DNA from: Octopus vulgaris
Taxonomy: Eukaryota
NCBI GenBank assembly: GCA_951406725.2
Contig: OX597817.1
Location: 43,834,001 to 43,898,000, forward strand
Length of the DNA stretch: 64,000 nt
Direction: 5' to 3'
Positions within the stretch are counted from its first letter, which is position 1; the number at the start of each line of letters is the position of its first letter. The position numbers were made by a program, and so were the translations under genes. This document shows, in pieces, positions 6,601-47,681 of this stretch. Below the pieces are notes generated by a model. That model was not told the origin of the DNA, made no database searches, and saw nothing but the letters and a program-made list of their open reading frames with translations.

Positions 6601-7789
6601 ATCAATTCTATAGTCATAGATTTAAAGTAATTTTCAATTTCATCACTCACTTCTAAAAGGAAGCAGGAGTTCTAACTATTTTCATGATAGAAACTCTGTA
6701 TTTGGACCTTCACATTATACCTTATATCAAACATTAAATATCACAATTCTTGAAAAGAAAAGGGGGAAAAAACGACTATGCTATCTTGCTATCAGGTAGT
6801 AAACAACATGAAAGGAAAATGATATTTTTAAGCAAATGACACCACCAATGCATACACACTTCATTGTGAAACATGTAAAGATTGAATCACTGGTCAAATA
6901 GTTTTTGACAATGAAGGTCAAAGCGTAACTTACACACACACTGTTATTTTAGAAATAAAATAATACCAGTAAGTGTTCAGGTCGATATAATCAAGTAAAC
7001 CCTTTTTCAAAATGTGATATTTTGTATCACTGTTAAAAATCAATATCATTAGTATTGAGGCAAGCACCATAGTGAGTCAAAATTAATTATAATCTAGAAT
7101 TGATTATCTTGTTCATGTAAATTGAATTCATGTTACCAATACTCTTGAGAAATGAATGGGAATGAGTTTGCAAGTCTAAAGTTTTCATGTCCTCTGAAAT
7201 ACAGACCGTTTGTGCCTAGCAAAGAAACATAGCATTATTGTTAACAATTTCATTTTCTAAAAAACATTTTCTTTTGTATATTTTATCAAGTCAACATTTT
7301 TTTCATTCCTGTAAATTGATGGTTTAGAAGAGAGTAGGAATTAATTATCAGGCAAGCGGAATGTTTTAGTGCTTGTACAGTTATGATTATATAATGAGTT
7401 TAGTTGTGCATTGCATTCTGTAGCAATGTGTCTTGCTTGTATGTTATGATATAGTTTTATTTACATATTCGAGGCATTTTTGTTTTCAAATCATTGTATT
7501 TAATGAGTTTCTCATGATCTACAATGGAGACATTTGAGTCTCACTTCGAAATATTTGCTTGCAAGTATATTTTTAGTGTAGTAATTTTTGATAGGGATAT
7601 TAAAGTTGCTTGTTCTTTAATATGTAGTAGTAAGGCTTTGTCCTTTTCTGCGCTTATAACAGTAAATTGCTTTAAAACTTTTTCTCTGTTCAATTTGGCT
7701 GTTATTTTATTACATACAAAGCTACATGTTGGCTGCTGAATCCAAAATTCTTCAAGACAGATTAATTATTATTACTATTATTATTATTA

Positions 7790-7945
7790 TTAGCTGCATT
7801 TTGTCTGTCTTCATGTTCTGAGTTCAAATTCCACCAAAGTTGACTTTGTCTTTCATACTTTAGGGGTCAATGAAATAAGTACCTATTGAACACCGGGATT
7901 AATTTAAATTTAAATTTTAGGCTGTGTGCTTTATAGTAGAAAAGA
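7790..7945 (+). mobile_element. Partial copy of the same SINE-like repeat
   Basis: gttctgagttcaaattccaccaaagttgactttgtctttcatactttaggggtcaatgaaataagtacc after an (ATT)n run. Confidence 0.7.
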
Positions 7946-10900
7946 TCATCATCATCGTCATCATTGGCAGTGATAATTTATACAGTGAAATGAATGCTAG
8001 ACTTATTTTCATTTTTACATGAATAAAAATGTATTGATAGTTACTGGTAGCATTCTCAATCTTATGAACAAGGAAAAATTCATCAGGAAAGGATATGAGC
8101 AAGAGCCACATAACTGAGACAAGGTAAAGGGCTTGTTGCACACACTGGGTAATGTTTTCAGCCTTACAAACACAATACTAAGAAAACAATTTAATTTGTG
8201 TTGAAGCATTAGAGTTATAAATATCATTTCTTGATCTATAATATAGAAATGATGCCTGTTGATTTTGTAAAGAGCTGTCTAAGTAGCTTTCTATTGTGCT
8301 TGTCTATTCATACTTCAGTCTTCACAAGAATTAAATAATATTGCAGAATGAAATTATACTTGTATTTTAATTTCTTAGATATTTGAAGATTTTATATAAT
8401 CTTTATCCCAATAATTTGAAATAAAATATTTTTTCAATATTCTCATAAAAAGGAATTTCAGATTAAATATTTCTTAAAAGCAAATCTATAATTGGAACAT
8501 CACAATAAAGGACCACAACTTAAATGTAACAAAAATAGGACTATATCTGTAAAATACTCTGTAATTAATCTGATATTAAAAAAATAAATAGATAAATAAA
8601 AGAAAGATGTATGGTGAAGGGAACAAAAAGACTGAACAGTAGGAAACAAATGAGAAAGCTAGTGAGACAAATTTATGCAAAACTAAAGAATAAATTTTTG
8701 AGGATAAAAGAATAAGTTTTGAGGATATGTTACAGGAAAAAGAAAAAAAAAAAGGAAAATACAGACCACCAGAGATGAAATGTTAAGAAATCAGAAATAC
8801 ACTTTAAAATAAAAATGGGGAAGTTGAGAGAAAGAGAAATAAAAAAGGCATAGGACTAAATAAATGTATTTCGCACGAAGTACAACTATTAAGAACTTTA
8901 CTGATACAAAATATTAAAACAATCTGAATGATATTTGAAAGTTGAACTGTAACATTCATATATACTATATGTCACTCTAAAATAGATTATAGAGTAGCAT
9001 ATACTATATATTCTACAAACACTATCAAAACAAATTAAATACAGACACAGAACTTTCAATGTAATGGACAGATAAAAGGATGAATAACCATATCTGAAGA
9101 GCAAACAATATACCAAACATGAGTTTCATCATAAATATTTAGACCTATGCATCTTGAACAACAATAAAATATAATACTAGGATACCATTTGGGCATTAAA
9201 CTCCATTTGTACGTGTATACAAATGCACATACTACAGAAGGTTCCCAAGAAAATCCCACAAATAGTTTATCCTGTCAAAACAAAGAATTACCCTGAAGAT
9301 TTTAACAATTTACCAACAGCTTACTCTCTGGGTGCTAAGAATTTTCTTTACAAGAAGCTCGTCCATGATAACAAAAACCTTGAAATCTCTGAAAGTTAGA
9401 CTACTTCACACAGCTATGACTTCTTAGTAACCTAGGCTTTATCTACCAGTGGGAATGATTACAAAACTTCTTTTTCATAGATCTAAAATACTGGGAGTAT
9501 ATTTCTGCACTAAATTTCTACATTGGAATGCTGTCAATTTTACACAATTATACTTACACACAAAGTCCTTGAAGCTCCTTATCAAAAATGCTCTTTACAT
9601 GAAGTAAAACAAGTGGATTATGACATATTACCAAATCCCTAAACTTCTTCCTTTACACATTCATATGAGGTCTTTTCTGCAATAATGGTTGGTAACTATT
9701 CAATTACCTTCCAAAATAGTAAAGCAATTTAGCTACAGTTTCTTTGGAAATGTTTAAAGAAATATGGACACACTAATTTCTAGTTGTCTTAAATGAACTC
9801 TCTGCAAAGAGTTATCTATAAGATAAAACATCATCCATTAATTCACTAATACTTTAGTTTAGAAAACATGAAATTATCAAATATGAACTTGGAGATAAAT
9901 ACCATGAGTGTCACTAACAACATGGGACAATAATGATTGAAAACAATGTACTGGCATGCTTTAAGTCTTGATAATTAAATGATCTAAAGAACCAACACAT
10001 ACATGGAAACATAAGTGATTTTGTATACTTGAATGTGTGGTGCCTATATATATATATGTATTTATGCAAAGGTAGCTACTACATGTCCTTATCCTTTCTT
10101 AAGTTATTGTTGTTTGGTTTCAGGTCATTGACTCAATGTATGATCTACAGCAATCCATCTTTGATTACTCTATCTTTTTGTCAGGCAGTGGAAGTATCAT
10201 TGCAAAGTGACATAAGATTACGGTCAGAAAAAGTTAGATTCTGCCAACTGAAAGAATTTATACTCCATTGAATAGAACACAAATGACATGTGAAGAGGAA
10301 AGGACAAAGAATTTAGTACATGTGTAGTACATCAGCTATACATGTGTGTGTGTGTGTGTGCATGTTTATGTATTTATATGTTTATGAGCATCTGTATGTG
10401 AATGATTTCTTCAAATCAGTGAATAAGGTTTTTTGTTGTTGTTGTTGACAAGTAAAATATTTCAATAATATCTATGTCCTAAGATAATAAATAGTCTACT
10501 TTGGCAGACAATGTGGAAGTAAAACTACAGGAGCAAATAGAGATAAAGAAAAAGAAAGGAGCACAGCAAAGTGTACGAACAGAAACATTGGTGGAATTTA
10601 TTGATAGAATATTTTAATGTACATGGGGATAAGAAATGTATATTTATTAGTAAAATGAAGAGTGTGTCATTATTAAATTGAAGCATCAGGTAATGTAAGA
10701 TAAATTTGACTACAAAATTGTTAGAAGTGAGGTTTCTTCAAAAGTCTTTTGTTCAGTATGTTTAGATGAGAATAATGATAGTTTAATTGTAAGTTATGGA
10801 AGAGTGGTAGTGAAATTTCATAGACTATAATGAACATTGAAAATATTGGTCAAAGTATGTTAGAACGTAAGTTAGAAAAAGGAGTCGTTTGTATATGATA

Positions 10901-11129
10901 TAGAGCAACAGGTCAATAGTAGATATATGATAGCCAGAGATACAGAGATTGCACAGTGTAATTTAGAAATGACTAACTAGAAAGAACAATGTATAAAAAA
11001 GACAAAGTTAACAAAGAATACGTGTTATAAAAATTAACCAGAGAATTATAACCACCAGCAAATATTAGAACTATCACAATATCACAGCTTATTTTAAACT
11101 TGGTAAAATATCTCAAGCTTTATTGTGCC

Positions 11130-11560
11130 ATCATCATCGTTTAATGTCCGCTTTCCATGCTGGCATGGGGTGGATGGTTTGACTGGGGACTGGTGAGCCA
11201 GGTGGCTGCACCAGGCTCCAATCTAATCTGGCAGAGTTTCTACAGCTGGATGACCTTCCTAATGCCAACCACTCTGAGAGTGTAGTGGGTGCTTTTACAT
11301 GCCACTGGCATGAGGGCCAGTCAGGTGGTACTGGCAATGGCCACGCTCAAATGGTGCTTTTTATGTGCCACCTGCACAGGAGCCAGTCCAACGGCACTGG
11401 CAACGACCTTCCTCAAATGTTTTTTCACGTGCCACCATAAGTGCTCGAATGGTGCTTTTTACATGCTACTGGAATGGGGGCCATTCAGTGGCCCTGGCAA
11501 TGATAGCACTCGGATGGTGCTCTTAGCACTCCACTAGCACGGATGCCAATCATGCGATTC
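11130..11560 (-). mobile_element. RTE LINE 3'UTR fragment
   Basis: catcatcatcgtttaatgtccgctttccatgctggcatggg... is collinear with 42705-43060. Confidence 0.85.
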
Positions 11561-13296
11561 TATTGATATTAATGTTCATGTGAGATAAGTAAATACAAAT
11601 TTTTTTCATCGTCAAATATGCTACACAAAAATATTGATGCAAATGGAAGGAATTTTATTTTGATTAAAAATTAACAAACTAATACTCTATTTTACTTAGC
11701 TTATTTCAGGAAGCTACTACATTCAGGATGATTTAAAGGTAACTCAAAAATGAACTTTGACTACCTGATATGTATTTACTTGTTCTTGTTTCTTTACTTG
11801 CTGTATCTGGAGGAAGAGGGCAGTATTCATGACCTTTGTAGGCCCAGAAAGACTAGAAAACTAGATGTCATTAATGTTCTGTTTAAGCTGTTGCAGTTTA
11901 ATGTTTCTGTTCTCTGTTTAATACTTTCCACTTAAATCTTCAAACATGAGTGTTGAAGATGCAGTAAATGAAGACATAGTACATGGTTTTATAGTGAATG
12001 AGACCTCTAGGCCCCCATCCCTACTCTGGAATTACACAGCAGTATGCTAATAGAAATGTTTTAAATGTTAGTGTGTAATTCCACTTTATGGTACATACTT
12101 GCAGGTAGCTGAACTAGAATTTTAAACGCTAAATGTCTTAGCTATGAACATAGCTCAGAACATGTGATAAAATATGAACCACTAATCTTTTTGATGATAT
12201 TCTAATACTTTGAAAACAATGACATGATGGTTCCCCTGTTATTAATAGTGTTCCATGAAAGACTACATGAAAAATGTAATTTTGTCAAAAAGGTGAAACA
12301 ATACTAAAACCTTAGATTAGGCTGTACCAGCTGTTAGAGAACTAATGTTTTTGAGTTCAAATTCTGGTACAGTCTTTCTCACCTAATTCCTAGTATCTAT
12401 ACAGCTGGTATAGAATCCAGTATATTTGGTTTTGAGTATCCAAGGCAACCGTTTAGCTATCAATACAGAAGTTTATCATTACCACTTCTGATTGAATCAT
12501 CTCAAAAATATCAGTGATCAAATATGTATTATTTGTAGATTTGTTTCCCATAAAATACTGTGGTGAAACCTATTTATAAATTCTGTTGTCTGATGCAATA
12601 AAATGGAACTATCCTCTCCCATTTTATTCTACTTATATTTTCCCCTTCATACTGTTACCCCTAGGAGCAGAATAAAATTGATATGATGTTTTAAATAAAT
12701 CTACATAACATTTTGAAATTGTTTTGACAAAGGAAATTATCTGAAGTTGATTATTGTTGCATAACTGAAATAAGTAAAACTGATATGAAAATTTATTAAA
12801 ATAACGTTTAAAATTTATGAAGTTGAAATCACAGTATTCTAATATGAATTTAGAGCTGATATTATGATGTTTATGGAAGTGATAGGGCACAGAAACTTTA
12901 AAGCTTAAAATTTGACCTTAATCACATTGAGATTCTTCTTAAATGCATTTTATTTGAATAATAGCAACAAAAAAAAAAGGAAGAAAAATTGTGGATATGT
13001 TGTGGGGATAGAATCCCAAGCTTAGTTTTTAGCACATGCTAAAGACAAATAGAAGCTCCATGGGAACAAAGTAATGAAATGAGATTGAGGAAATGAGCAG
13101 GAGGGATATATTTATCCAAAATTGTCGAATATCATAACCATAAAATTTGGTAATGAAATTGTGTCTGTGATATGTGCACATGCAGAGTTTCCATATATTA
13201 AATAAAAAGAAAGAAAAGAAAAAGGAAATAAAGTAAAGAATTTGCAAATGAAGGTGAGAAGGGTTAAACAAAAGATGTAACAACAGAGATACGTAC

Positions 13297-13326
13297 TTGG
13301 AAAAACATGCATTGGACCAAACTCTT
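13297..13326 (-). CDS. Nrxn: Candidate 30-nt neurexin SS4 microexon (EEFGPMHVFP)
   Basis: ttttcattttatctcttcttctttacttccatttcag|AAGAGTTTGGTCCAATGCATGTTTTTCCAA|gtacgt; very strong acceptor, good donor, phase 1-1, open; TGCATG about 115 nt into the downstream intron. Confidence 0.55.
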
Positions 13327-14199
13327 CTGAAATGGAAGTAAAGAAGAAGAGATAAAATGAAAAACGGACAACATTGAAACAACATAGATTGCATTCCTTA
13401 GTGATTTTCTTTGTGTTTAATGCTATTTCTTTTCCTTTAATTCTCTATTTTACAGATAGTGAGTCTATAAGAACTATGTGAGTTTGAGACGAAATGTAAA
13501 TGCTCATGTATCTGCACCTCAAAAACTAGAGTATTTCTGTAAGGAAACCAATTAGAACTCGCAGTATCTTTTTAGTATAATTTTTGTTTGTAGTGGTACA
13601 AAGAGAATAATTCTTAAATATTTGAGAACGTATTTAATGCCTAATTAATAAAAGTGTTGCTCTAAAGGTACATTACAAATACTACTACACATATCACATT
13701 ATTTCCATAAAGAAGGAGCATCATATAATTTTCTTGAATGAACTGATGTGAAACCAGGGCTAATTAATTCATGGTTGACTGGTTTGCAAGAGAATAATCA
13801 TCTAGCTGACTAAAAATCATTAGCTCCTGTAACTTATGTAAATGCCTTTAATTTTCAGTGTAACCTTAGAAACAGTTATCCTTAGAAAACAGACATGAAA
13901 AGAAACTGCTAAACTTTCATAAAAACTAAAACAAATGCATGTTTGTATATGACACACAAACACACACACACAAGTAGACTAATAGATATTCATATACATT
14001 TATATAAATACATATAAATGTAATAAAATATCCTGGAGATGAATAGGTTCCAATATATTTAAAATGCCTAAAGCATTCTGTTCATAATGGCACTCTTACA
14101 AAACCATAAGGAGTTCAGAGCCCAAAGAAGGTAACATGTGTGTATATATGTGTGTGCGTGTATAAAACATACTCTATGTATATCTTATGATATATAGAC

Positions 14200-14245
<46 letters not shown>

Positions 14246-16337
14246 TGACTCTTAGAAAGTTCAGTAATTCACAGCAGTTGTTTCATTCCAAGTGGGAAAC
14301 ATTCTACTGTGTAATACTGAAATGGAAGTTGTATTCGTTCAGCTGATAAATTTGAGTGTGTGTGAATTAATAAAATACAGTTATCACTTTTTGTGGTAGG
14401 GTATTATGTGGATTCTTATTTTACAGATGTGTAAGCTAAATTAATACAAATTCCATTTCAAAAAAATCCTACAGTACAAGGTTTCTCAATTTCCATTTCC
14501 TATAACAAAATTCTTAGTTAACAAATATTATTCTCTTTCTTTTAGTTGAGATAGTTGTACACCTATTAATTACACACACACACACACTTCAAAAGTGTAT
14601 TTGATATTGAAATGGCTGAATGATATAATTTTGATATGTAGTAATTGCAATTTAAGAAAAAAATATGTAGCATATAATTTTTAATTGATAAAGTAGATTT
14701 ATAATATACACATACAATATATTTGTGAAACTTTCCTTTCATAAAATTAAACAAATTTAGGTTGCATGAAAAATATTAAAAATAGATAATTTGTTTTAAT
14801 AATTCCTATTTAGAATATGTAACTATAATCTGTTTATTATTGTATTTTAAAATAAAGTATGTTTGTTTCTCTGTACTTTGTATGGTTTAATTAGATATTA
14901 AAATTGAAAAAATTGCAAGTTTTCACTAGAAGTGTGCTTTTTCTCTTCATAGTGGCATTACTTCTGATTCTGTTATGTGATATCTATACAATACGTGATA
15001 AACAACAAACAGGAATAGAGTTCTTTTTGCAATGGCATACTTTGCTTATCATAAAAATTGATATAATGGCTCATATTCAAGTAATCAAATGTTATTCAGT
15101 GATGGTAATTACATTGAATCCCTGTTACTTGGAAAATAAAAAAGATGCACACTTAAGAGAAGAATGTAATATTTCTAAAATATCTTCATCAAACTTTGCA
15201 TCCAAGAGATTGATTCATAATGCTTAAGTCTTTATCAAGAATTAGTGTTTTTGTTCCTGGACTTATTACAAAGTTTGGGTAATGATAGTTTGCTGTTGAA
15301 AATAGAACTTCTGTCTTAATGAAGAATGCTATATCACATCTTAATAATTGTGATAATGTCATTTGAGAGATCATTTATATTAAGCAAAGTTCAGATAAAT
15401 TTCTTTTCACTCTGTTTTATTAGTCCATGTTGAATAAGCTTTTAAATTCATGTACCTACTTGCACTACTAAAACAAATTAGAAGCCCTTCCCAATGCTAA
15501 TTATGTCAACATGACATTATTTATCTACAGCTATATTGACTAAAGAAATACATTTTTTAATTCTTATATCTCTAATAGAGGAATATTTCTCAGCTTATCT
15601 ACTTCACCTTAGAGAGAAAATGAAATAAATGATCTTAGTTTAGTCTATATGAAATTCTGAAGAGTTTATTGTTCAGAGGGTATACATTGGTAATAGCACA
15701 GCACTCAGAATTAAGAACTCGTGTGTGTGTGTGTGTGTGTAACTGAGAGAGAGAGAAAGAGAGAGATGTGCAATTGGGAGAGTAAAGTGTATGGTGATAT
15801 GTTAAAAGAGATACAATAAACACAACAAAAAGATAAACCAGGCCCAGAAGATTTTGGCAAGATAGGATCAATTCATCATATGAATAACTATCTTTTGAAT
15901 GTTCCATAGGATGTTAATAACAACTATAGAGCTGGGATAGAATTGATGGCAAATAAGATTTAAGATTATGTGCATGTAAAGAATATATATTCTGTTTATT
16001 AAATTTCAATGTATATGTATGTGCGTATATGACTGTGTAATGGACATGTGTTTTATAAATGCAGATTATATAGTTAATAATTTATGGTTCTATCTATATT
16101 CTACAATTACAAAAAATAAAAAAAAAACAAGCACAAAACAATATTAAGCTTTTAGAAGTATTTTTAAGAAGAAATGAATTTTAAATTTATTTTTCACTAT
16201 ATAAATTGAATGATTGATGTTAAATAACATTTCAAAATAGTTATATGAAGACATAAGGAAAAATCCTTTTTAAATTAATGAAAGTGCTAAATAGTGTAAA
16301 TTTGTTTGAACAGAAGCTATATATAATTATAATATAC

Positions 16338-16402
<65 letters not shown>

Positions 16403-19400
16403 TAATTTATAAACAAATTTATTAGCAGTAATTTGGCACTTATTTTACTAATTAAGTTGGAAAATAGGAACTTCTATCAGGCCTATAATTATCTGCAGTA
16501 TATCTAAAAATTTTGGAGGTTTTGGAGACCGAATGCTTGTTAAATATTTTTTTCCCAAATGTATCAAAGAACAATAGAATAAAATGAATTTTGTATTTTT
16601 AGAAAGAAATGATTAATAGCATATTTCAAAGTGTAAAAAGAAAAAAATAGAAGGAAAGGGGGGAGAAAAATATTTGCTAGTTTGATTTATGATAAATTTT
16701 CAAAATTACTTTGTCATTGATTATAAATAAAAATATTTCAGGAAGCGAGTGAAAGTGTGAAATACATGAGAAATACTAAATCTAAATACCAAAGTAAAAT
16801 CATATAATTATGACTCACTGTTGGAGAATATAGCTGTGACTGCGTTTGCTATAAAATAATTGCTACAGTTCACTAGAATAGGAAGGGAGATGATTGATGC
16901 AGTATTTATAAGTGCCTTGACTATAAATTGAGGAGGACTTTAAAGAATATGTATAATTTATTCTGCTTTAATACCTTATAGAAAACTTAACTGAAGTGAA
17001 AATATGAATTAATGATGCTAATTCATACACACACACTTATAAAAATAGGCTGTAAATGTACATATGCATGCATCTATTTAACTGTCTGTCCATCTGGTTT
17101 TTGTCTATCTATCTATCTTTCTCTTTCTTACTTTATATGTATATGTGCCTATATATATGTATCAATATATGTTGGGTCACTCTCAGTGCTACTGGTAACA
17201 TGTAACCCAGGAAAACTTGCTGCATGACCAGGCCTTTGGTCACTAAACCAGTTACCCTGCTTGGTAAGGAAGATGGTTTTTGTTGGTCACCCAGCAGAAG
17301 AAAAAAAAACTGTCAAAGGGCAGAGAATTCAGTGGAGTCGACTGCCATCTCATAGCTGGGAGTGAGAGAGAGCCGTAATCTCTGCTTAGACATTTCTCTT
17401 AGTTTTAGGAAAACTCTGATGTAACACTTGTGACTTTCTTTGCATTCACTTATGTAAACTAGTTCTTCTTTTGGGGCAATTGCATGCATTGTTCAGAATG
17501 GGACTAGTCCTGTGTAAGGCCTTTCCTCATTTAAAAAAACTTCAGGTATAGGCATCACTTGATTTTTAACATGTTTATTAACATCTATCTCAATATAGTT
17601 GGCATTAGCTTGAAAAAGTAAAAACACTCAATGAAAATTCCATGATAGAATGAAGGCATATGTTGTGTGTGTGGTAGTTGTAAGAGTCATCTTTTGTTGC
17701 TACATCTGTGTAAAAGAGTGTAGATCCCTAGCAAGATTAAAAGGCCACATCTGTGCTGTTCATCATTGCATTGCAGCCATCATGTTATGCATGTACGTAT
17801 GTATGTATGTATGTATGCATGTATACATGCATGTGTGCATGTGTTTTTGTGTGTGTGTGTGTGTGTGCATATGTGTGTGTGTGTGCACGCATGCGTGTGT
17901 ATGAATTATATACTGTATAGAAGTTCATTAATAAATTCTGAGAATAAAAATACATTTCTAAATTTAATGTCTCTCAAGGTCATCTTTTTCATCTTTAATA
18001 GAATGTTAAATATCAAAAATTACGTATTAGGATAAAATATGAAACTGATATAAGAAAGCAGAGTTCCACTTAGGTTTCTGAATTAAAGTTTTTTGATTTT
18101 CAATATTTTGACTGTGTAAAGTATTTTCTTTTGCTGTATGTGCATGCTGCTATTCTTTGGAATTTTTTTGTTATTGTAATATTTTTTTCAGCTGTTCATG
18201 GTTCTTGTGGATAACCAATATGTGAAAGGGTCGTTAATTAATCAAATGTATTCATTTGTGAAACAATTTCATATGTGCTATGAGCTGATATACTTAGACT
18301 TGCATATAATCTTCCAAATTAAAATAAATAATTCCTTGAGTGAGACAGTTTTTAATAATGGTGAATTCAATATATAATTGGTACTGGTTTTATTTAACTG
18401 GTTAGTTGAAGGGTGAAACAGAACGCTATTTTGAAATATGACTATATGAAGAGAGACTAAATTCTGGAAAATAACTATCATCCTGTTAACTGCACTCTAA
18501 ACGTTTGAATATACATCTAGGAAAACATATTTAACAGCCATCTGAAAAGGGCTACTTGAATTTCTCTCATTCTTTCTACTTGTCTCTTTCTTTCTCTTGG
18601 TGTAAAACATTCTAATGATAACGGTGTATCTACCAAATATATTCCTCTATGTAATTAAATGCTTTAGGGATTTCTTCCTTGACTATATCATATCTATTTG
18701 TGTAAATGATGTACCATCAGTTAAAGGTTCCTCAAGTGTCAGTATTTAATCTGACCTTTACTTCTATATCGGTAAACTTTTTCCAATTATCAAATCACAC
18801 CATTTATTCATATGTAAATGCTATTCCCTGTGACTTTGTACTTCTATATCTGATTCTCTCAATGCTGTAATTATCTACATTTTCTATCAATAATTCTATC
18901 TGAAGTTGTGTCATATCCAGGGAAGAAAACTGCCTTAAACATCCTTATTTCTCCTGATTAACACATATTAGGGTTAATATAATCTATAGAGGTTTCTCCT
19001 GGAAATTTCATATTCTCAACTAGATTCAAATGATTTCGATCCTTTACAAGTAAAAAAACAACTATGTTTTGGTTCCTCACAAGGCTTAAATATCCCTCAA
19101 TATGGAGTGCTGTTTTCATATCAGAGATAGTGCACTGCCTTCTAGCACTGACAACATCAAAAGGAAAACAATCTACTTTATAAACCTTCCCTTCAAAGCT
19201 TTCGCTCTTGTTACACCTCATGGTGGCAAAGAAGCTGTCTGTGTCTTATGTCACTATTGTAATGTACTTTGCTATTTAGAGCTTGACAGTTTCAATCAAT
19301 CTTCAATGAACTTATCCAATGTAATTGTTTCTGTGCCCTTTGTTACTAATACATATTATTCTCAAACTGTGCAATCCTTTGATCTAAAGACTGATAATTT

Positions 19401-20088: not shown

Positions 20089-20199
20089 CTGTGATAAAGA
20101 TTTAATTAAAAGAGCTGCTAGTAAATGCATTATTTTCTTCACTTTTATAGTATACAAAATATACTTTTATATTCTTTTAAAATGTGTATGTATGCACAC

Positions 20200-34884: not shown

Positions 34885-36199
34885 CTGGGCAAATTGGCAA
34901 GCAAGAAAACAGAAAGTAAAGAAAAAAAAAGAAAATATCAATATAAGTATATATATTCCTCAAATAACTTTAATGCAAAAACCATGTGAATTTGTTGAAT
35001 GTGAAAAAAGCAAACAACTGGATTAGTCAACGTTTTGAGAGAGAGCGTTAGACGAAAGAAATTTAATTGAAAGATTAATACAATAAAATTTTTAAAAATA
35101 AATACTGATAAATATTATTTACATGACAAAAACTGCATATAGAAATATAAATTAAGTATTTGAGGAATATAAAATAGAAATAATACAATAATAAATAGTT
35201 GTAGCGGTTATATATATATTACCGATACTGACTATTTGTTGGTAATATACACCTGATTTTCTGCACTGTTTTTTAAATAGGGAAAATTTTTATTTTTTCA
35301 CTATTTCAAAATAATGTATATAAAATATTTTACTCATATAGTTAGTTTTATAAAAATGATGATAGTATAAGCTTTTAATTCAGCTGGACATAGCAAACTT
35401 GCACAGATTTTTGCTCTTAGAATTTAGTATGGTTTTCACAGCTAAATTATTAAGTACATAAATTCTAAAATAATGATTTAAATCTTGTCTGTATTTTCTC
35501 CCTTTGCATCAAATTTTTCAATCCAAAAATAAATTCCTTCACAGTAAGTTATGTGTGGTATGTTTTGCTATTTGGATTTCTATGTGAGAATCCTTATTAA
35601 GAAATAAATAAATATTCTGTTGAAAATTGTAGACAAACTTTCATATCAGTGAATTTTATAAAATAATTAAACACTCATCTTTTCCTTTATCATAGTTGTC
35701 TATTTTAATGAATTTGAGAATAGTCTAAAATGTGAAACATAATCTTCAGAATTCTTTTATATGCAATTTGTTCTTCATACAGCATATTAAAAGAAACTAT
35801 ATGTGTTTTAGTATCTTTTAGTTGTTGATCAGTTAATTTAACTATGAAACACATAGTGAAGGGTAAGTGTAAATATGTCAAAACAATTGTGATTAAAAAC
35901 GTTTGTTATACAAAAAGACTATAGAAACCATTAAAAAGTCAAAACGTAGCACTTGAATAAACTATTATGTATTTCACTAAATATATAATGGTTTAGTGTT
36001 TAATACGTTTATTAGTAAACAAAAGTTCTGAATGTATGCTTTTGTAAAGGTGACTGAAATCAGTTTCTATGCAGATATATCAATGTGACTAAGAGACTAT
36101 CCAAAATTTCCCATGTATTTGTTGTACAGAGGGAATAACTTAGTCAGCATACTCACATAAAGGACTATTAGCAAATAGTGGTTGGTGACAATTAGTTAC

Positions 36200-36217
36200 C
36201 AGCTATCTGGTAATTTT
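36200..36217 (-). CDS. Nrxn: Candidate 18-nt neurexin SS4 microexon (ENYQIA)
   Basis: tcttcttttttttttcatgttag|AAAATTACCAGATAGCTG|gtaact; symmetric phase 1, no stop. Splice-signal evidence only. Confidence 0.4.
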
Positions 36218-38614
36218 CTAACATGAAAAAAAAAAGAAGATAAATATTTGCTTTATTATTAGCATTTAATTTGGTTGATCTATATAGAAATTTACTTGAT
36301 AATTTTGAAAACATTTGCTTTCATATCATGTCAGAATCAATACTTGTTTTATAACTGTATTTTTTGTATAAAAATTTGGCTATTATATTTACTAGTCATC
36401 TCACTGAGATCAGTAATTAAGGTTAATTTATTATTACATATTTTAGAATGAAACACAATGATTTTAAAAAAAAATTTTGAAATATATAACATATTTGAAT
36501 ATTACAAATTTAGTTTTATGATAGCATTTGTTGTAATATAAAAATTATATTAACTCATGGAATTTTAATTTATGTTTGATAAACAATAAGAAATAGTTTT
36601 TCTTTCCTTCATGGGAATGATTCTAAAATTTAACCTTCATGTAAATTCATTTTTTAAATATATCTAGTTAAGTTCCAATTAAAAGTACAATTTAGTCTGA
36701 CACATGGATCTTTAATGGAAATAAATTTTTAAAGAAACTCTAGAATTAGCAGGAAAATCAGATACATATTTTACAGAAGTATTATAAATATATTGGAAAT
36801 GCACTCCAAGGTACAAAAAATGTTTACATGTTTGCTTGAAAAAATACAAAATTATCAAAATTTACACATAATTGTTGTAACTCTATATATTATTCCAGTT
36901 TTCATAACAACAAAATTTTCCTTACCAAAAAGAGAAGTATATAAACTCTCTCCACGCACACACACACACATGTATATATGTGTGTGTGTAAAATATTCTG
37001 TACTCAGTCATTGAGCTGTTTTTATAGAAGAGGCATCTTTTGGTATCTCAAGTTTTATGAGTATAGCATTATGAATTAGATTTACAGATTTTTCTGAATT
37101 CAAAATATATAAATTAAAACTTAATACTTCAGCAGAATGTCAAATTTGTTAGAATATTTTCAAAGAGTGAACATATCTAAAGTAAATAAAGTTTGAAGAA
37201 AAAAAAAACTGTTTGTAAGTAAAATTCAGTAATCTAATGAATAAATGCTTTATTTGAATATAAACAGAAAGCACATTTGATTACCAAAATAATTATTTCT
37301 TACTAAAGTACGAGACCCTAGAGGAATCATGATGGTAAAATCATAATGGTTTTGCTTTTCCCAAAAGATTAGTATTTTGAAGTGAAATAGTTCATACTGA
37401 GAATCAATAGTGAGTGCTAGCCTATTCTATAAAATAAAAGCAAAATATATACTTTTTGCAAAACTTGTGAATAACTAATATTATAGATGATTCTGACTAA
37501 TTATTTAAGATTTCTAAGATATTATTCATTACAAGGTATAGTTTTTACTTGAAGGACATTTGCAGTTGGAGTATTGAGTTTTACTGTTTATCTCTTTTAT
37601 TTATTTAAAAAGCATGGGCAAAAAATAAATTTTGCTACACATGCAATGAAATATACAAGAGCGCCAAATTTTAGCTTCTTGTTAAAGACAGCCATATTGA
37701 AAGAAATAATTAAGATCAGCTAGGCTCTTAAGTTCAATAACCAAAGTGCCACATATATACCTAGTAAGATTTGTTCTAAAAAAATAAATCATTCTAAGGT
37801 AACCAATGAACTGTGCAAACGTACTTGATCATGTGACCATTTGTTAAAGTCATATCCAACATAACAGTTTGTAGATATCTGCAGGGATGTATGACATTAA
37901 TTTTCAAACTTACCAGAAATGTATTAAAGATACAAAATCTTGTTAAATAATATATCCTTAGAACAATATGTTAAAGAGTAATGGGGAGATAAACTCATTT
38001 AACTAAATTAATTACCCAGCATTTAATAGAAAAGATGGCAGTTGAATATGACAATTGAATCAAACTGTGGTATATGAATATCAATTATGTCAAATTACAA
38101 AAAACTGTGACTCAACATATTTTTGCACAGATATTATCTATATTACTTGCAATCACCAAAAGGACAAGTAAAAGAGTCATAATATTCAAAAATGTGCTTG
38201 TATGTACATATATCTCACAGCATTTGCAAAACATGAATATTCTATAATTCATAGAACACAAAACATGATAATCTAAATATAAGCCAAATTATACATGGCA
38301 TAAACATTTGGAGATAGAGTGACATAAATGGTATATGTGTACTTGTGTGATCATATATATATGTGTGTGTGTGTGTATGTGTGTGGGGAGTTATACAAAC
38401 TTTGGAGAAGCTTATCAAATAGAAATTAATTTATTATCCTTTTTTACTAATCCTAAGTGTTTTAGCTTAACTTAGTAGATACCATCTCAGTTTGTTTTCA
38501 TATATTTCAAACATTTTATCAAACTATATTTCGTTTATTGTAATAAGATTTCAATCATTTGATATTCACAAAAGATGTGTTACTTAATTTTGATTTTACT
38601 GCATCCTATTGCTT

Positions 38615-38648
38615 GTATATACATGCAGATACAATACATATATATATA

Positions 38649-38691
<43 letters not shown>

Positions 38692-39005
38692 ATACATGAA
38701 TATATACATATATATGTATATATATTGTATGTATATGCTTACAATATAGGATTGTGTATATATGATGTATATATATATAATACATATATTATACATATAT
38801 ATCTACATACATATATATAATATCTATTTACATAGAAGTGTATATATATATATATTATATATATATGTGTGTGTGTATATGTATAATATGTGTATGCATA
38901 ATAAAAAATGTATATGTACTATACAAAATATACATTATATATAATATATATATATATATATATAATATAATATATATGTATGCATGTATGTATATATGTA
39001 TGTTT
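38615..39005. repeat. TA-rich low-complexity tract
   Basis: Direct reading. Confidence 0.85.
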
Positions 39006-41504
39006 GTGTTTACACTCAAACATCAAATTAACTCTGTTGAAATAAATATGATCATCAGAAAAAAACAATCTTGAAGGAAACAATATATTGGCTACAACGT
39101 TCATGTGTTTACAAAATAGTATCATTCAAACAGATGATTTTTTGTAGGGACGCTGGTACAAAATATAATAGGTCCAGCTAATTACAGCAATTGGAATAAA
39201 AGGAAAAAAGTGTTAAACAAAACATCTCAATGTAAAAAGTGAATTTTGAAGAAGATTGTTTAAAATAGTTTATGATATTTAAGAAAATATTTTGAAAAGT
39301 TTTCATTTTTTTTACAATTTTTTACATTAAATAAAAATATAAAATATTTTGTTAGTGAAAAAACCATGGTACATTTTTATGGATAAACATTTTTTATTTA
39401 AAATAAAATCAAGTATAATTACATTATTATCAAAATAAAACTTGGCATAGGAAGATATGAATAATAAATAAACAATTCTAACATAAAAATGTCATTGTTA
39501 TGGAATTTGTACCTAAGGTAACAGTTAACCCAAACGACACTATATTTCCTTCATTAAATACTTGATTTTCAAAAAAAAAAAATACTTTCACTGTTGGATA
39601 CATGGATATATTCCAAAATGTTTAAGTGCAGAGTTTTCCATTAATTACTTAATGTTATGTAAATTTTAATCTGGTTGTGAAATTACATTTTGTAAGGCTA
39701 AATGAGATTATAAACTAAACTGTTATGAGTTCAAACTTAGCATGCATTTCATGTTGTGTTCTTTAGCCAGACATTATTTTTGTCCCAGTTGTCCTGCAAA
39801 TAATACATGCCATCAATGTATTCCATTTAAATGATTAAAATAAAAGTGTTTTGAGCTGTAACTACTAGTCCCATTTGTTGACAAATAACTAAATTTTTAA
39901 AAACTGTTTCATCCATGGTAGGGAATCTCTCTCTTTCTTTTTCTCTCTCTCTCACACACACAATTTTGAAGCAGAAATCTTTATTAAACTGCAAAATTTT
40001 AATTTTGACTCAAGCCTACAAAACAGACATAGCCAAATATAACATGCTAGTTGGTATTAGTAGATGAATGGAAGGTGAACATCTCTGAGAAACTATTATG
40101 GAACTAGAAATTTAAGCACCTTATATGCACTGATACAACTGATAGCCTTTGTAGCCATACACTTAAACCTACACTGCTCCAATGATCTCTCTGATTAGAC
40201 ATATAATGATAATTAGATGATAGTGTGCTAAATGTTAATTATTGATAGTATCTGTAAATAAGGATTGAAGTTTTGGTATTTCTTTTTTTCAACTAACAAC
40301 AAAGGCTTTCTCTTATCAGAGAAAAACAGTCTATGTAAAGTATTGGTATATTAAAATATAAGGAAGAGAATAAGTAAATTGTAATAGTGTCTGAGCACAA
40401 AAGAGTAAAGTAACTACACAGAGATGGTGAAGATGGATATGTCCCAGGAGCAAAATTGTTTTCTAATAATGATATGGAATAATTAGTTCTAACAATAAGA
40501 GAACAATGAGCCACAGACATGAGAAAAAGAAACTGAGATGCATAAGATGCAATATAAGAGTCATTCCAGTGAAAATGAACATGAATTCACGAAGAAATAG
40601 CATAACTGATAATTGCACAAATATCTAGAACTCTCATAATATTTCATGAAATATGGAGAGATGTGACAACTACTTTACATTATCATGTGATAATCAAAGA
40701 AAAGTACAATAATTACACAAAATACCTATTCTAATCGAAAAGTTGTTATTGGTAATGTTTGAATATATTTCAAACCAGAAAAAACAGTAACTTACCCGAC
40801 AATATGCACTAAAATTATATCTGATTTATACAGTTATTGATAAGGTAAAAATAGTAAAATACGTATTTTAATAAGTGACTAATAACTGCAAATCTCTGTC
40901 TATTCATTGTCCCCTTCTCTCTTTCTGGATACACACACACACGCACACACATATAATTATGCTTATACACACATGTGTATATATATGTATATATGCATCT
41001 GTATGCATATATCGTCGTTGTCATCATCAGATATATATATATATATATATATATCATTATCATCATCTCTACCATCATTTTAACATCCACTTTCCAGTGC
41101 TTGCATAGATTAGATAGAGTTTGTTGCAACATATTTTCTGTAACTGGATGCCCTTCCTGTCACCAACCCTTACCTGTTTCCAAGTAAGATCCAAGACATC
41201 TGGTGATTTGCTGTGCTTAAGAAGATACACCCAGCTAAGTAAAATTGAAGTCATACAGGCAGGTTCTTTATATCTCTACACTACCCAACAGTTTGTTCCC
41301 CCTTATCAAAACTCCCCCCAACCCATTTTCCCATCACCTCTCTTCCTTCTACAATCACTCTCAGTGCCTTGACATATCTATCAAATTGTAAAAGACTGTT
41401 TCATCCATGGTAGGGAATCACACACACACACACACTTTCACAAGCTCCCTCTACTGTTAGAGTGTGACACTTCTTCACACAGCTGTCCTCATCCATGCAG
41501 CAGA

Positions 41505-41715
41505 ATCCATCAGGGAAATATACTGGGACCATTATTGTTTGTGATGGATCTCTCAGATACACTTTCAGACATACAGTAAGTCACTCTTACCAGCTATGCT
41601 GATGATACAAAAGTATCAAAGGTGGTCAGGGACGCTGGTAACATCCTAAAACTGAAAAAAACACCTGAATGCAATATACAGGTGAGCAGAGAAAATAACA
41701 TGCAGTTCAAATGTC
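41505..41715 (+). mobile_element. CR1/L2-like LINE RT fragment
   Basis: QGNILGPLLFVMDLSD..LTSYADDTKVSKVV..HLNAIY..AEKNNMQF with stops and frameshifts. Confidence 0.75.
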
Positions 41716-43040
41716 AGCAGGTTTAAATGAACAGTTTTCCTTCTACTCTTACACCTCGTCTTAATTCCTTAAACTCTTTTGTATCCTTCAACTTTCTTTC
41801 TTCATCTTTTGCCTTCATCTCACTCTCAACTTAGTCTGCTTCTCCTATTCCATTACTCTTACCTTCTCCCTTCTTACATGATTTCACCTACTACTTCTTG
41901 TTCACATATGAAGCTCACAAGGTCCTGCATTTCTTATCAGTTGCAGCCAGATTTTTTTAACTTAAAAGATTTCATTTATTTCTCTCATTTCTAATTTTCC
42001 CTCCTCATGGCAAGTTCATTGTACTCTTCTTATCAATTTTACTATATAATTTAAGTCTTGTTGACACAGACTAACACCAACTACTACGGAGTTTATTTGA
42101 TCACACACACACACACACATACCATGCACATGCATGTTTGTGTGTGTGTGTGTGTGTGTGCATGTGTGTGTGCATGCATGTGTGTGTATATTCATACATA
42201 AACTATGTTATACAAGTACCATATTTCAACATTATCTTCTTACAGACCAAGAGAATTGTCAAGCAGAATGTAAAACTTTTGGCTATGTTGTTTAATGTTA
42301 CTGTGATTGGCAACCTGGATGGCACACCATCACTATGGTTTTGCTGTTACCCACTCATTAAAATAGCTGACAAGTGGCTCCTATAATTTTCATTTAAATA
42401 ATTAAAAAATGTTTCTTAAAAGTAACAGTCATTCAACAAGGTAAGACATATATTAGGTATGGGCTATGGGTACTGTGGAAGGAAGTAGAATGATGTGATG
42501 TACTAGAAGCAATTTTTTTGAGTCTGTGCTTACAGACTATTTTGGCTTGTTTTCAATATTTCTTTTTTACATAACAGTCATTGTACCTAGTGGACTTACG
42601 TTCATCCCCTAGCCTATAACACTCAGTCTCCTATCTGTAATACAGCAGCATTAGACACAGAATAACTCTTTGATACATTTAAAAATATAACAAGTGTGCC
42701 TTATCATCATCATCATCATCATCATCGTCGTTTAGCGTCCGTTTTCCATGCTAGCATGGGTTGGACGGTTCTACTGGGGTCTGTGAAGCCAGAAGGCTTC
42801 ATCAGGCCTAGTCAAATCTGGCAGTGTTTCTACGGCTGGATGCCCTTCCTAACGCCAACCACTCCGTGAGTGTAGTGGGTGCTTTTTACGTGCCACCCGC
42901 ACAGGTGCCAGACAGAGCTGGCAAACGGCCACGAACGGATGGTGCTTTTTATGTGCCACTGGCACAAGAGCCAGGCGAGGCTGGCAACGGACACGAAACG
43001 GGGCGGTACTGGCAACGGTCGCGAAACGGAAGGTTCTCTT

Positions 43041-43331
43041 ACATGCCACCGGCACTGGTAACACATCTGCAATTTCCATTGATCGATTTCCATTCTGATC
43101 CTCACTTGCCTCAACGGGTCTTCACAAGTAGAGTTTCAACATGCCACCGGCACTGGTAACACATCTGCAATTTCCATTGATTGATTTCCATTCTGATCCT
43201 CACTTGCCTCAACGGGTCTTCACAAGTAGAGTATCAACATGCCACCGGCACTGGTAACACATCTGCAATTTCCATTGATCGATTTCGATTCTGATCCTCA
43301 CTTGCCTCAACAGGTCTTCACAAGTAGAGTT
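43041..43331. repeat. Three tandem ~98-bp near-identical units in the RTE 3'UTR
   Basis: acatgccaccggcactggtaacacatctgc...cacaagtagagt starts at 43041, 43139 and 43237. Confidence 0.95.
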
Positions 43332-43404
43332 TTGTGTCCCAAGAAGGGAAGGTATGCATACGTAGGCTGGCTCCATCCCAAGTAGAAGGCCACGGGTTAT
43401 GGAC

Positions 43405-45051
43405 TCACTTGTCCTGCCAGGTCTTCTCGCGCACAGCACACTTCCAGAGGACTCGGTCTCTAGTCATTTCCTCAGTGAGACCTAAAGTTCGAAGGTCGTG
43501 CTTCACCACCTCGTCCCAGGTTTTCCTGGGTCTGCCTCTTCCACAGGTTCCCTCAACCGCTAGGGTGTGGCACTTTTTCACACAACTATCTTCATCCATT
43601 CTTGCCACATGACCATACCAGCGCAATCGTCTCTCTTGCACACCACAACTGATGCTTCTTAGGTCCAGCTTTTCTCTCAAGGTACTTACACTCTGTCGAT
43701 TATGAACACTGACATTACACATCCATCGGAGCATACTGGCTTCATTTCTTGCGAGCTTACGCATATCCTCAGCAGTCACGGCCCATGTTTCACTGCCATG
43801 TAGCATGGCTGTTCGTACACACGCATCATACAGTCTGCCTTTCACTCTGTGCGAGAGGCCTTTTGTCACCAGCAGAGGTAAGAGCTCTCTGAACTTTGCC
43901 CAAGCTATTCTTACTCTAGCAGTTACACTTTCAGCACACCCGCCCCCGCTGCTGACTTGGTCACCTAGGTAACGGAAACTATCAACTATTTCTAGTTTTT
44001 CTCCCTGGAAAGTGACGGAAGTTGGTCTCAGAGCATTTTCAGTGTTTATTGTTCCTGAGCATCTGCCACATACAAAAACCATCTTCCTAGTTAGCCTTCC
44101 TTTGACATTGCTGCACCTCTTATGTGTCCATAGCTTACACTTGGTGCATCTTGAAATAGAGTTTCTACCTACACCTTTTCTACAGATCGAGCAGGGCCAT
44201 CTACCTGAAGGCGTTTGTGATTTGTCTACCTTCCTACTGATTACGACTTTGGTTTTAGCTAGATTGACTCTGAGGCCCTTCAATTCTAATCCTTGTTTCC
44301 ACACCTGAAACTTCTCCTCCAGTTCTGATAGCGACTCAGCAATTAGAGCAAGGTCATCAGCATAGAGGAGCTCCCAAGGGCATCCTGTCTTGAATTCCTC
44401 CGTTATTGCCTGGAGGACTATGATAAATAGGAGGGGGCTGAGTACTGAGCCTTGGTGGATCCCTACCTCTACCCAGAATTCTTCACTGTACTCGTTTCCA
44501 ACCCTCACCCTACTAGCAGCGTCCCTATACATGGCCCGCACAGCTCTCACTAACCATTCATCTATCTCTAGTTTCCTCATTGCCCACCAGATAAGGGATT
44601 GAGGGACCCTGTCGAAGGCTTTCTCCATGTCAACAAAAGCCAGGTACAAGGGCTTATCTTTGGCTAGGTATTTCTCCTGCAGCTGCCTTACCAGGAATAT
44701 AGCATCAGTAGTACTTTTCCCTGGCACAAACCCAAACTGCATCTCATCTAAACTTACTCTCTCTCTAATTAGTTGGGCTATGACCCTCTCCGTAACCTTC
44801 ATCACCTGATCCAACAGCTTGATACCTCTGTAGTTATTTGTATCTAGGGCGTCACCTTTACCTTTGTAGCAGTTGACTATTATGCTGCTACACCAGTCAT
44901 TGGGTATGACTCCTTTGTGTATCACCTGATTAACTATATGGGTGACTAGGCTATAGCCGACACTACCAGACATTTTGAGCATCTCTGCAGTGATTCCTGA
45001 TGGGCCTGGGGCTTTTCCTGTCTTCGTGCTTCTAATTGCCTTAGCTACCAC
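43405..45051 (-). CDS. RTE LINE reverse transcriptase (partial, no true start codon) with inserted PHD-like Cys/His finger
   Basis: KAPGPSGI, NYRGIKLL, QFGF, AFVDMEKAFDRV, GIHQGSVLSPLLF, LLYADDL, FRYLG and RTE-type C-terminus (HGSETW, RRLRWYGHV, GRGRPRKTW). The listed start is an internal GTG. Confidence 0.95.
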   Translation of the reverse strand: MVAKAIRSTKTGKAPGPSGITAEMLKMSGSVGYSLVTHIVNQVIHKGVIPNDWCSSIIVNCYKGKGDALDTNNYRGIKLLDQVMKVTERVIAQLIRERVSLDEMQFGFVPGKSTTDAIFLVRQLQEKYLAKDKPLYLAFVDMEKAFDRVPQSLIWWAMRKLEIDEWLVRAVRAMYRDAASRVRVGNEYSEEFWVEVGIHQGSVLSPLLFIIVLQAITEEFKTGCPWELLYADDLALIAESLSELEEKFQVWKQGLELKGLRVNLAKTKVVISRKVDKSQTPSGRWPCSICRKGVGRNSISRCTKCKLWTHKRCSNVKGRLTRKMVFVCGRCSGTINTENALRPTSVTFQGEKLEIVDSFRYLGDQVSSGGGCAESVTARVRIAWAKFRELLPLLVTKGLSHRVKGRLYDACVRTAMLHGSETWAVTAEDMRKLARNEASMLRWMCNVSVHNRQSVSTLREKLDLRSISCGVQERRLRWYGHVARMDEDSCVKKCHTLAVEGTCGRGRPRKTWDEVVKHDLRTLGLTEEMTRDRVLWKCAVREKTWQDK

Positions 45052-45110
45052 GGAACTATCAACTCGGATAGCTGGTCCCTCTGTTAGCTGGTCCCTCGGA
45101 TAGCTGGTCC

Positions 45111-45152
<42 letters not shown>

Positions 45153-45154
45153 CA

Positions 45155-45330
45155 TACAGGTTGGTTAGTTTGTTAAAAAGTTTGTTTCCAAACTATTTGG
45201 TTGTAGGTCCAGTTCCCTTACATGACACCTTGGTCAAGTGCCCTCTGCTATAGCTTGAGTCAGCCAAAATCATATATATTTGGTAGATGGGAACTGAAAG
45301 ATGCCCATCATATTCATGTATGTGTATGTG
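45155..45330 (+). mobile_element. Decayed SINE of a third family; partial inverted copy at ~45640-45700
   Basis: gacaccttggtcaagtgccctctgctatag...tttggtagatgggaactgaaagatgccc; reverse-complement relative tagtagacacttgctcaaggtagtgcacagtgggac ~400 bp downstream. Confidence 0.55.
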
Positions 45331-46115
45331 TGTGCATGTTCATGCACATGTATCTGTTTGTGTCTTTACATATTCTCTGAATACTGTGAGCTACAACTAG
45401 TGACAATGTCATTTCTTTGTCAACATCTTTGAAAATGTCTGACATATGAGGAGATTCCTTTCAAAAACAGGTAAATGTTAGTGACAGGAAGGGTATCCAG
45501 CAATAAAACAATGCTAATAATAATAACCAATGATAACATGGAATAATGAAATTTAAAAAATGAACAATATATGAAAACACTCTCTCTCTTTCGCTCTCTC
45601 ACACACACACTGTTAGTACTTTGATCACTCATCACTATCATAGTAGACACTTGCTCAAGGTAGTGCACAGTGGGACTGCACTCAAAACCATGTGCTTGAG
45701 AAGTAATGTCTATGACTATATATATACATATATATGAAAAGAAAATGAAAATGGAATAAGGGATTATGTCATGAACTGCATTAGATTGCAGCTGTTTTGC
45801 AATAAGATGCAATGCACTCATAGTTGAATACTTGTGTATCATTCTATAGCATCAGTGGAGCTTCAAACATGTACAATTTTATCTGGAAAATGTAAACTAA
45901 TGAAGTTCATGACAATTCCTCATTCCTTCATTTTAATGTCTTATTACTGCTCTATACTTGATAGATGCTTTGTTCTGAAACATATGAATATTGAGTTCTG
46001 TCACTAAGTTATGTAGTATTTCTATACCTAAGTGAAATAATAATAATGATTGTAATAAAAATAATAATAATAATAATAATAATAATTATATATATATATA
46101 TACATATATATGTAA

Positions 46116-46380
46116 GTGAAGGTGCATGACCTGGTGGTGTGTTGTGTCTCTGAGGAACACACCACTATATTTCATGATGCTTCAGTCCATTCAGCTGGCA
46201 AAAATTAGTAGTACATGTATTTTAAAGGGCCAGCTTTGTCACATTCTGTGTCATACTGAGTCTCCCTGGGAACTACATTAAGAGTATGCCTGTCTGTGGA
46301 GTGCTCAGCCATTCAAACATTAGTTTCAAGAGCAGGCTGTTCCACTGATTGAATCAGATGGATAACTGATGGAATGCTAT
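46116..46380 (+). mobile_element. Decayed SINE with the same head as 53532
   Basis: aagtgaaggtgcatg start; internally deleted; tatttcatgatgcttcagtccattcagctg core. Confidence 0.55.
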
Positions 46381-46439
46381 TTATACTTAACATCTAGTTT
46401 GCTTGTATATATATATACACATATATATGCACAGGATTT

Positions 46440-47520
46440 GCAAAGACTAGATAGAAATAAAGTGAGCATGGTTTACTGCATGTGTAATGTTAGTATGCAT
46501 GAATCAGAGTATAATTGACCTGAGAAAAAATCTGTATATAAGAATCAAATGTAATATGCAAGAGAGAAGACTAATGTATGGATATACAATGCATATTGAT
46601 GACAACAGTGACATAAAAGAAGTATCAAACACTCAATATGAACAAAGAGAAGACTTAGAAAGACATGGGACAAAATGGAGAAAAACCGATCTGAAGTTGC
46701 TGAACCTCACAGAGGAAATAACAAACATCACAACAATTTGTGACTTGTCATAATGAAGATGACCTGAACTTGTGCAAGGAAGGTAGAAAGGAATCTATAA
46801 CCGTTACTATATCAATTTTTTATTCACCCCTCCATCTCTGATCTACCTTCCTACCTTTTTTCTCACTGCTTTTGCTGCATTCATCTACTGTTCCAACTCC
46901 AGGCCTTATTTCTTTTGTGGTCCCTGTCCTCTTTCTATAAATTCTTCATTGCCCCAATACTGTCCATTTACTCTCTCATCTCCCTCTGATAGTACCCAGC
47001 ATCTCTGTTTTTAGTGACTCTCCTTGTAGTTTCTTCAGCTCCCTTTTCACTTTCATATCTCTCTCTCTCTCACTCATACAGTCCTCCACTGAGCCTACTC
47101 TCGTAGCCCATCAGCCTTACCTTGCTCTTCCTCTCTCAATTTCACTAACTCCTGATACTACTCCTTCTCTTTGCCATTCCCAAGCTTTCCTCATCTCTGT
47201 TACCTTCTCTATTGGCACCTTCTCACAAAATTAAACCTGTTCTTCCCATCCATAACTTAAATTCTCTTAACTCCAAAGCTAAAGTTATTGCCCTGTCTTC
47301 TTTCCTCTGTTTCAGTTGTGAGAACTCTAACTAGCAAGACAGTCTCAATGGAGCCAATGCCATGAAAAAGCATCCAGTTCACTGGCAAATTAAGCACAGA
47401 AAATGCAGCATTGAGAGAACTCTTTAAATGTTGATAACAGGAAAGCAACAGGCCATACAAAAACTATCTCAATAAGCTTTGTTCAAACCATGCCAGCATA
47501 GAAAATTGGGTGTAAAAACT
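46440..47520 (+). mobile_element. Old RTE LINE 3' end (ORF C-terminus, CT-rich UTR, tail)
   Basis: Decayed match to the young copy's ASMLRWMCNVSVH...MQERRL..YG.. region, then a CT-rich tract and a caaaccatgccagcatagaaaa tail; opposite orientation to the young copy. Confidence 0.65.
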
Positions 47521-47657
47521 AATGAAATATATGTCCTGTGTGCATATGTATATATGTAAGTGTGTGAATGTATAAATATATATATATACATATACATATA
47601 CATATATATATATATGTATCATTTATACAGTATTAGAAAGTTATATTAGAAAGTTAC

Positions 47658-47681
47658 CCTCATAATGGCCAGTTCTTGTTA
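47658..47681 (-). CDS. Nrxn: Candidate 24-nt neurexin SS4 microexon (VTRTGHYE)
   Basis: ctctcattctttaacttgaattttttcag|TAACAAGAACTGGCCATTATGAGG|gtaact; symmetric phase 1, no stop. Splice-signal evidence only. Confidence 0.45.

Follow-up and report, generated by a model that had tools for sequence, protein, structure and literature searches.

The DNA analyzed here is a 64,000-nt stretch of the Octopus vulgaris genome (GenBank assembly GCA_951406725.2, contig OX597817.1, positions 43,834,001 to 43,898,000), referred to below as the window. Its minus strand carries part of the Octopus alpha-neurexin gene, including part of the large intron at splice site 4 (SS4). We find that this intron holds two optional cassettes, A (36 nt) and B (30 or 27 nt), which are annotated as absent, single, or stacked, and which likely constitute a convergent switch on the ligand face of the sixth LNS domain (LNS6). 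We put the probability of this reading at roughly 0.78. A preliminary description of the same DNA had proposed an array of about ten mini-cassettes in this intron, but the eight segments other than A and B probably resemble splice sites by chance. No synaptic splice switch has been studied better than SS4, and octopuses evolved a large brain independently, hence the interest of an unrelated version of this site. In the literature, SS4 is often presented as something that vertebrates acquired (PMC3229692).

Two optional exons at splice site 4

All neurexin exons were placed, exon by exon, on the genome contig (G000:C4), and the protein model P0047 has the architecture of an alpha-neurexin, with six Laminin_G stretches, EGF, a Syndecan-type transmembrane region, and a KEWYV end. 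The parts of the gene that frame SS4 are as follows.

61021..61199, minus strand: constitutive LNS6 exon, first part, with an exact match in 9/9 Octopus isoforms mapped
56830..57001, minus strand: constitutive LNS6 exon ending in HPD-G, phase 1, with boundaries confirmed by contigs from 4 runs
1..56829, minus strand: the part of the SS4 intron inside the window, from exon mapping

In an alignment to neurexins of the Protein Data Bank, an Asp in the first of these exons aligned with the Asp of vertebrate 'ADRL', which we take to be a Ca2+ ligand, and octopus LNS6 has aligned counterparts of the vertebrate LNS6 Asp, Ile, and Asn, presumably residues with roles in Ca2+ binding. The protein encoded by the second exon is 100% identical to Octopus and Argonauta neurexins, and its best match is the sixth LNS domain of the solved neurexin-1-alpha. 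The donor of this exon (57001-56830) is in phase 1, reads GTAAGT, and starts the SS4 intron. With the next constitutive exon (GEQMSIFNNQA...) placed 17.6 kb outside the window, beyond its start, the full intron measures 74,402 nt; the preliminary description viewed the window only, and this further 17.6 kb was outside it. The octopus junction HPD/GEQMSIFN aligned with vertebrate YP(A/T)/GRQLTIFN, at which the vertebrate 30-residue S4 insert sits (PMC6160412), and the site is therefore SS4, with the insert point directly before G-x-Q-x-x-I-F-N. Exon mapping and protein matches thus bore out the earlier identification of a neurexin whose upstream exon encodes LNS6 and ends in HPD-G in phase 1, and the junction alignment did the same for its placement at splice site 4.

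Within the intron, the isoform models mark the following exons.

34849..34884, minus strand: cassette A, 36 nt, adding 12 residues (VSSWYIGEILDP); 8/14 Octopus isoform models, both species
13297..13326, minus strand: cassette B, 30 nt, adding 10 residues (EEFGPMHVFP); this form in 6/14 models, both species
13297..13323, minus strand: B27, a shorter form of B from a tandem NAGNAG acceptor; 1/14 models, O. sinensis X3 (P0056)

We compared 14 full-length Octopus isoform models, obtained from 15 of the 26 Octopus cluster members, the fifteenth being a 244-aa fragment. The seven models of O. bimaculoides (X1-X7, all seven sampled) include both cassettes in four cases, A in one, B in one, and neither in one. 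Among the six O. sinensis models (X1-X3 and X5-X7, with X4 left out) A is present in three, B in one, B27 in one, and no insert in one, while the single O. vulgaris model has no SS4 insert. Two exons and one tandem acceptor are thus annotated in five SS4 states (none, A, B, B27, and A+B). The cassettes are 21.5 kb apart, and inclusion of B changes the junction Gly to Ser. The A and B inserts of O. bimaculoides and O. sinensis map to the window with zero mismatches. NCBI X-isoforms usually rest on RNA-seq alignments, and we infer that these models reflect real RNA. The proposal that several unrelated short cassettes are used combinatorially at SS4 therefore held for A and B, which are annotated alone, together, and absent, but not for the other eight segments. 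In length, B (30/27 nt) falls right at the usual microexon limit of 27-30 nt, and A is above it.

Mutually exclusive splicing of the two cassettes was ruled out by the four O. bimaculoides models that contain both. DNA searches with the A and B regions matched only their own locus in each case, and the lack of a second copy in the genome is a weak negative for an origin from a repeat family. Scans of metagenomes with the back-translated A and B patterns returned 0 matches each.

Candidate segments and their acceptors

All ten AG...GT segments of the preliminary description are present on the minus strand where it placed them (its coordinate for each is the last exon base), have lengths that are multiples of three, and are open in phase 1. 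The complete SS4 intron contains 21,437 AG..GT pairs of 3-100 nt, of which 7,123 are multiples of three and 3,032 are also open, and pair densities were similar on the antisense strand and in five other introns. These pairs were ranked with a splice score derived from the same gene (17 acceptors and 17 donors, A and B excluded), which makes for a rough model. The test for enrichment of open, phase-1, multiple-of-three segments that had been proposed earlier failed: at 8/8 splice-score thresholds there was no enrichment of multiple-of-three pairs, whether open or not (best p 0.079, whole intron). As a set, the ten segments are not above chance. Their ranks among the 3,032 were 2 (30 nt, cassette B), 4 (6 nt), 5 (18 nt), 9 (24 nt), 12 (39 nt), 15 (36 nt, cassette A), 27 (15 nt), and 89 (12 nt), followed by two poor scorers at 293 (57 nt) and 688 (66 nt). 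The eight candidates other than the 36-nt and 30-nt segments occur in 0/14 Octopus isoform models.

The acceptor region of cassette A is given below, together with the best-looking of the eight unsupported segments.

34885..34960, minus strand: acceptor region of A, with a 72-nt AG-free zone, 84% pyrimidine
34278..34283, minus strand: 6-nt candidate GTGCAG, which would add Gly-Ala, with a 92-nt AG-free zone, 70% pyrimidine

Three TGC lie within 32 nt of the AG of cassette A, and the acceptor is weak. That of B has a 68-nt AG-free zone with 82% pyrimidine, and there is a TGCATG downstream but no TGC nearby. Exons that depend on eMIC in flies and mammals have been described as having UGC close to the acceptor together with extended AG-free zones and pyrimidine tracts (PMC8797185). 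Cassette A has all three features, including the UGC near a weak acceptor, whereas B has the AG-free zone and the pyrimidine tract only. Judged by its sequence, the acceptor of A thus resembles those of eMIC/Srrm-dependent exons, although at 36 nt the exon itself differs from the microexons of that program. The octopus genome also contains an SRRM_C match scoring 32.6 bits against a Pfam cut-off of 27, in the following exon.

L042 1501-1635, plus strand of another contig: Srrm234-like exon with an SRRM_C match above the Pfam cut-off

By analogy, inclusion of A may be neural and driven by Srrm234/eMIC. Eleven YCAY motifs, presumably Nova-type sites, are found within 150 nt downstream of cassette A (34700-34845); the cluster is possibly incidental, because it is similar to a common CAT-repeat sequence in this genome. 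Recursive AG/GT sites above the score thresholds were absent from the SS4 intron.

When the 74 kb were filtered for an AG-free zone of >=40 nt, >=70% pyrimidine, and a donor score of >=2, four segments survived, namely A, B, the 6-nt segment, and a frame-shifting segment of 62 nt. For this filter, 0.77 open multiple-of-three matches per 74 kb are expected from background, and three were obtained on the antisense strand. Out of 8 filter settings, A and B passed 8, the 6-nt segment 6, the 24-nt segment 3, the 18-nt segment 1, and the other five candidates 0. At the two strictest settings only A and B survived in the 74 kb, compared to 0.15-0.46 expected.

Contigs were examined from 4 runs of 4 studies, whose RNA status was guessed (there is no RNA label on the record) and which carry no tissue labels. 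In 4/4 runs the upstream exon was joined straight to the next constitutive exon; the cassette-free form is therefore real and probably the commonest one in those runs, and it is likely the commonest in bulk RNA. Since contigs drop minor forms, direct joining does not exclude A or B. Among the contigs listed for positions 33400-38300 in runs X1, X7, and X9, a listing that excludes a further 364 pieces and 102 loose ends, no piece or loose end fell on A or the 6-, 15-, or 18-nt candidates. DNA from a very close relative (run X17) differed over 4.9 kb by at least 12 substitutions and a small number of indels, with no change inside the four candidates covered, but this relative is too close for the sameness of sequence to be informative on conservation.

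Possible convergence and function, and alternatives

Optional inserts at the SS4 junction are also found in decapod crustaceans. Of 47 decapod neurexin records, 25 have an insert of 19-20 residues at this junction (from clusters P0016, P0009, P0015, and P0020), 17 have none, and 5 do not cover it; both forms occur in five species. In these protein records, the decapod insert is single, basic, and unrelated in sequence to A or B. The records of abalone (13), limpets (3), and Capitella (2) showed no SS4 insert, nor did chelicerate records spanning the site, and short protein fragments over the site yielded no additional cephalopod insert. Among 144 new cluster representatives, 23 span the pattern-defined site, and two of these have inserts of 20 and 28 residues, which may be prediction artefacts. 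In honeybee neurexin I, another invertebrate neurexin, there is an intron at the position of human site 4; the available part of that paper gives the site as an intron/exon junction and reports no insert (PMC2570956).

Octopus, decapod, and vertebrate inserts showed no pairwise similarity across lineages (shuffle p 0.12-1.0), whereas pairs within a lineage were similar in the same test. Octopus and vertebrate NRXN1-3 share the gene family, LNS6, the junction, and a frame-keeping optional insert in phase 1 before Q-x-x-I-F-N (PMC6160412). Where vertebrates encode their 30-residue insert in a single 90-nt exon, however, the octopus has two exons of 36 and 30/27 nt, which encode 12 and 10/9 residues. 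On present sequences, the octopus cassettes are SS4-like by position and appear not to be homologues of the vertebrate exon, and independent origins within one ancient intron would be the simplest reading. A single ancient origin is less likely but conceivable, because short sequences can diverge beyond recognition and absence from gene models is weak evidence. The closest parallel in layout that we considered is Ptprd, a LAR-RPTP, in which two short exons, meA1 and meA2, likewise share one site at which a presynaptic adhesion protein faces its ligand, and occur in all four combinations (PMC10883964). Ptprd belongs to another protein family, its site is in an Ig domain, and its exons add up to 9-27 nt; for meA1/meA2, function and specificity for cell types have been shown, whereas for the octopus cassettes both would be predictions.

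As a possible mechanism, two optional exons and a tandem acceptor would produce five SS4 states on LNS6. Each insert, of 9-22 residues, would lie a few positions before the I-F-N motif and beside the ligand surface, and could alter the affinity for neuroligin or another partner, as in vertebrates. There, the SS4 insert lowers neuroligin affinity ~4-fold and LRRTM2 affinity >20-fold, and forms a beta-strand in one crystal form (PMC6160412), and it permits cerebellin binding (PMC6856630). According to a review, LRRTMs and cerebellins appear restricted to vertebrates (PMC10084454), and the likely target in octopus would therefore be neuroligin or some other partner. Of the three ligands named in the preliminary description, neuroligin thus stays a likely partner, but LRRTMs and cerebellins are apparently not applicable. 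When the 119 open segments of 36 nt were scored against a profile built on the 13 pre-junction residues (131 neurexin segments), the peptide of cassette A came first, with a shuffle p of 0.05, or 0.004 for the Trp-bearing subset, which was chosen afterwards, and 0.105 for the remainder. As a lead only, cassette A may stand in for the native strand before the junction. When B was considered as a possible duplicate of the downstream strand, no good register was found.

How many of the candidates are real, and whether they matter, can be read in other ways. At one extreme, most of the ten segments would be used, and SS4 would exist in dozens to hundreds of forms. All ten are AG/GT-bounded, open, and multiples of three, two proved real, and four fall inside 3.5 kb of sequence for which no tandem repeats are listed. 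Against this stand the missing enrichment over background and the absence of 8/10 from all 14 models, as well as an AG-free zone of <32 nt in five of the ten and a negative summed splice score in two, and we regard such an array as highly improbable. A more modest version adds to A and B only the 6-nt GTGCAG, 565 nt downstream of A, as a real microexon missed by standard aligners, with the 24- or 18-nt segments possibly as minor further ones. No other of the ten has an AG-free zone as long as that of this segment, and it is the sole open multiple-of-three segment besides A and B to pass the filter described above; moreover, the loosest filter leaves 8 segments besides A and B compared to 4.6 expected. 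However, one leftover match is what the background predicts (p 0.54), the segment is lost at 75% pyrimidine, it has no TGC near its acceptor, and it is in no Octopus protein model examined and absent from the contigs of 4/4 runs. We therefore think a three-element switch unlikely.

Conversely, A and B could be real but low-level and functionally neutral, the outcome of leaky exonization in a long intron that is tolerated in a surface loop, or they could be annotation noise. In accordance with this, they were not seen outside the genus Octopus, and the contigs of 4/4 runs assemble the skipped form and contain neither cassette. Yet identical exons with identical boundaries are annotated in two species, A being present in more than half of the models; both cassettes keep the frame at the exact SS4 position, their acceptors are rich in pyrimidine with long AG-free stretches, and decapods also place an optional insert at this junction, so that we consider neutrality or noise quite improbable. 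The observations in the contigs nevertheless weigh against the two-cassette switch as well, as do several other points: the inclusion of A and B is supported by annotation, not reads; the isoforms sampled were 15 of 26 cluster members; the A+B combination was found in O. bimaculoides models only; the Argonauta model and six transcript-contig proteins clustering with cuttlefish fragments have no insert; and the strict acceptor filters were set once A and B were already known. Exons of 6-18 nt are often missed by annotation, and the absence of the other candidates from the models is thus weak evidence. The neurexins of O. bimaculoides and O. sinensis are, furthermore, 98.7% identical across the whole protein, and therefore peptide identity alone is no proof of selection; the same exon boundaries in both annotations are a stronger point.

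If the two-cassette switch is true, the octopus two-exon version together with a third, decapod version would offer a clear example of convergence on a single protein loop, and it would bear on whether cephalopods use a neurexin splice code, apparently without LRRTMs or cerebellins. A bolder and more doubtful extension would make SS4 a hotspot at which a different, unrelated ligand switch arose in vertebrates, in decapods, and in octopuses, with the octopus alone using it combinatorially (A, B, B27, A+B, and perhaps the 6-nt Gly-Ala) and in a neuron-type-specific manner, and with A standing in for the native strand, to which it is similar in length and register. Since public gene models already include the exons, the sequence is not new, but the reading appears to be: we found no description of cephalopod SS4 cassettes in the available open-access literature, subscription papers and supplements being outside the scope. 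A 2011 paper on Aplysia neurexin reportedly mentions splice variants at vertebrate-equivalent sites, which may lower the novelty.

Other features of the gene and the window

Further variation was observed elsewhere in the gene. Some 121.5 kb upstream of the SS4 donor, an optional exon of 27 nt (LAKDRGLFV) is absent in 1/14 models; it seems to sit at the position in LNS2 that is equivalent to SS2. For its acceptor, the AG-free zone measures 67 nt and a TGC is present, and two GCATG follow downstream. The 120-nt exon of the third EGF is skipped in 3/14 Octopus models and two stalk exons in 2/14. The six cuttlefish-cluster proteins are all shorter, and the third EGF is missing in the one examined (P0003). 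In the O. vulgaris model P0058, a different last exon (L007 1870-1932, minus strand) takes the place of the KEWYV PDZ-binding end; this is possibly a genuine alternative end, or else an artefact of prediction.

The SS4 intron also contains the following open frame.

43405-45192, minus strand: 595-codon open frame with a reverse transcriptase domain (Pfam RVT_1, E 4e-31)

This is likely a 5'-truncated LINE in the same sense as the gene. Adjoining it, at 43041-43332, are three tandem copies of a 98-nt unit that are 96% alike.

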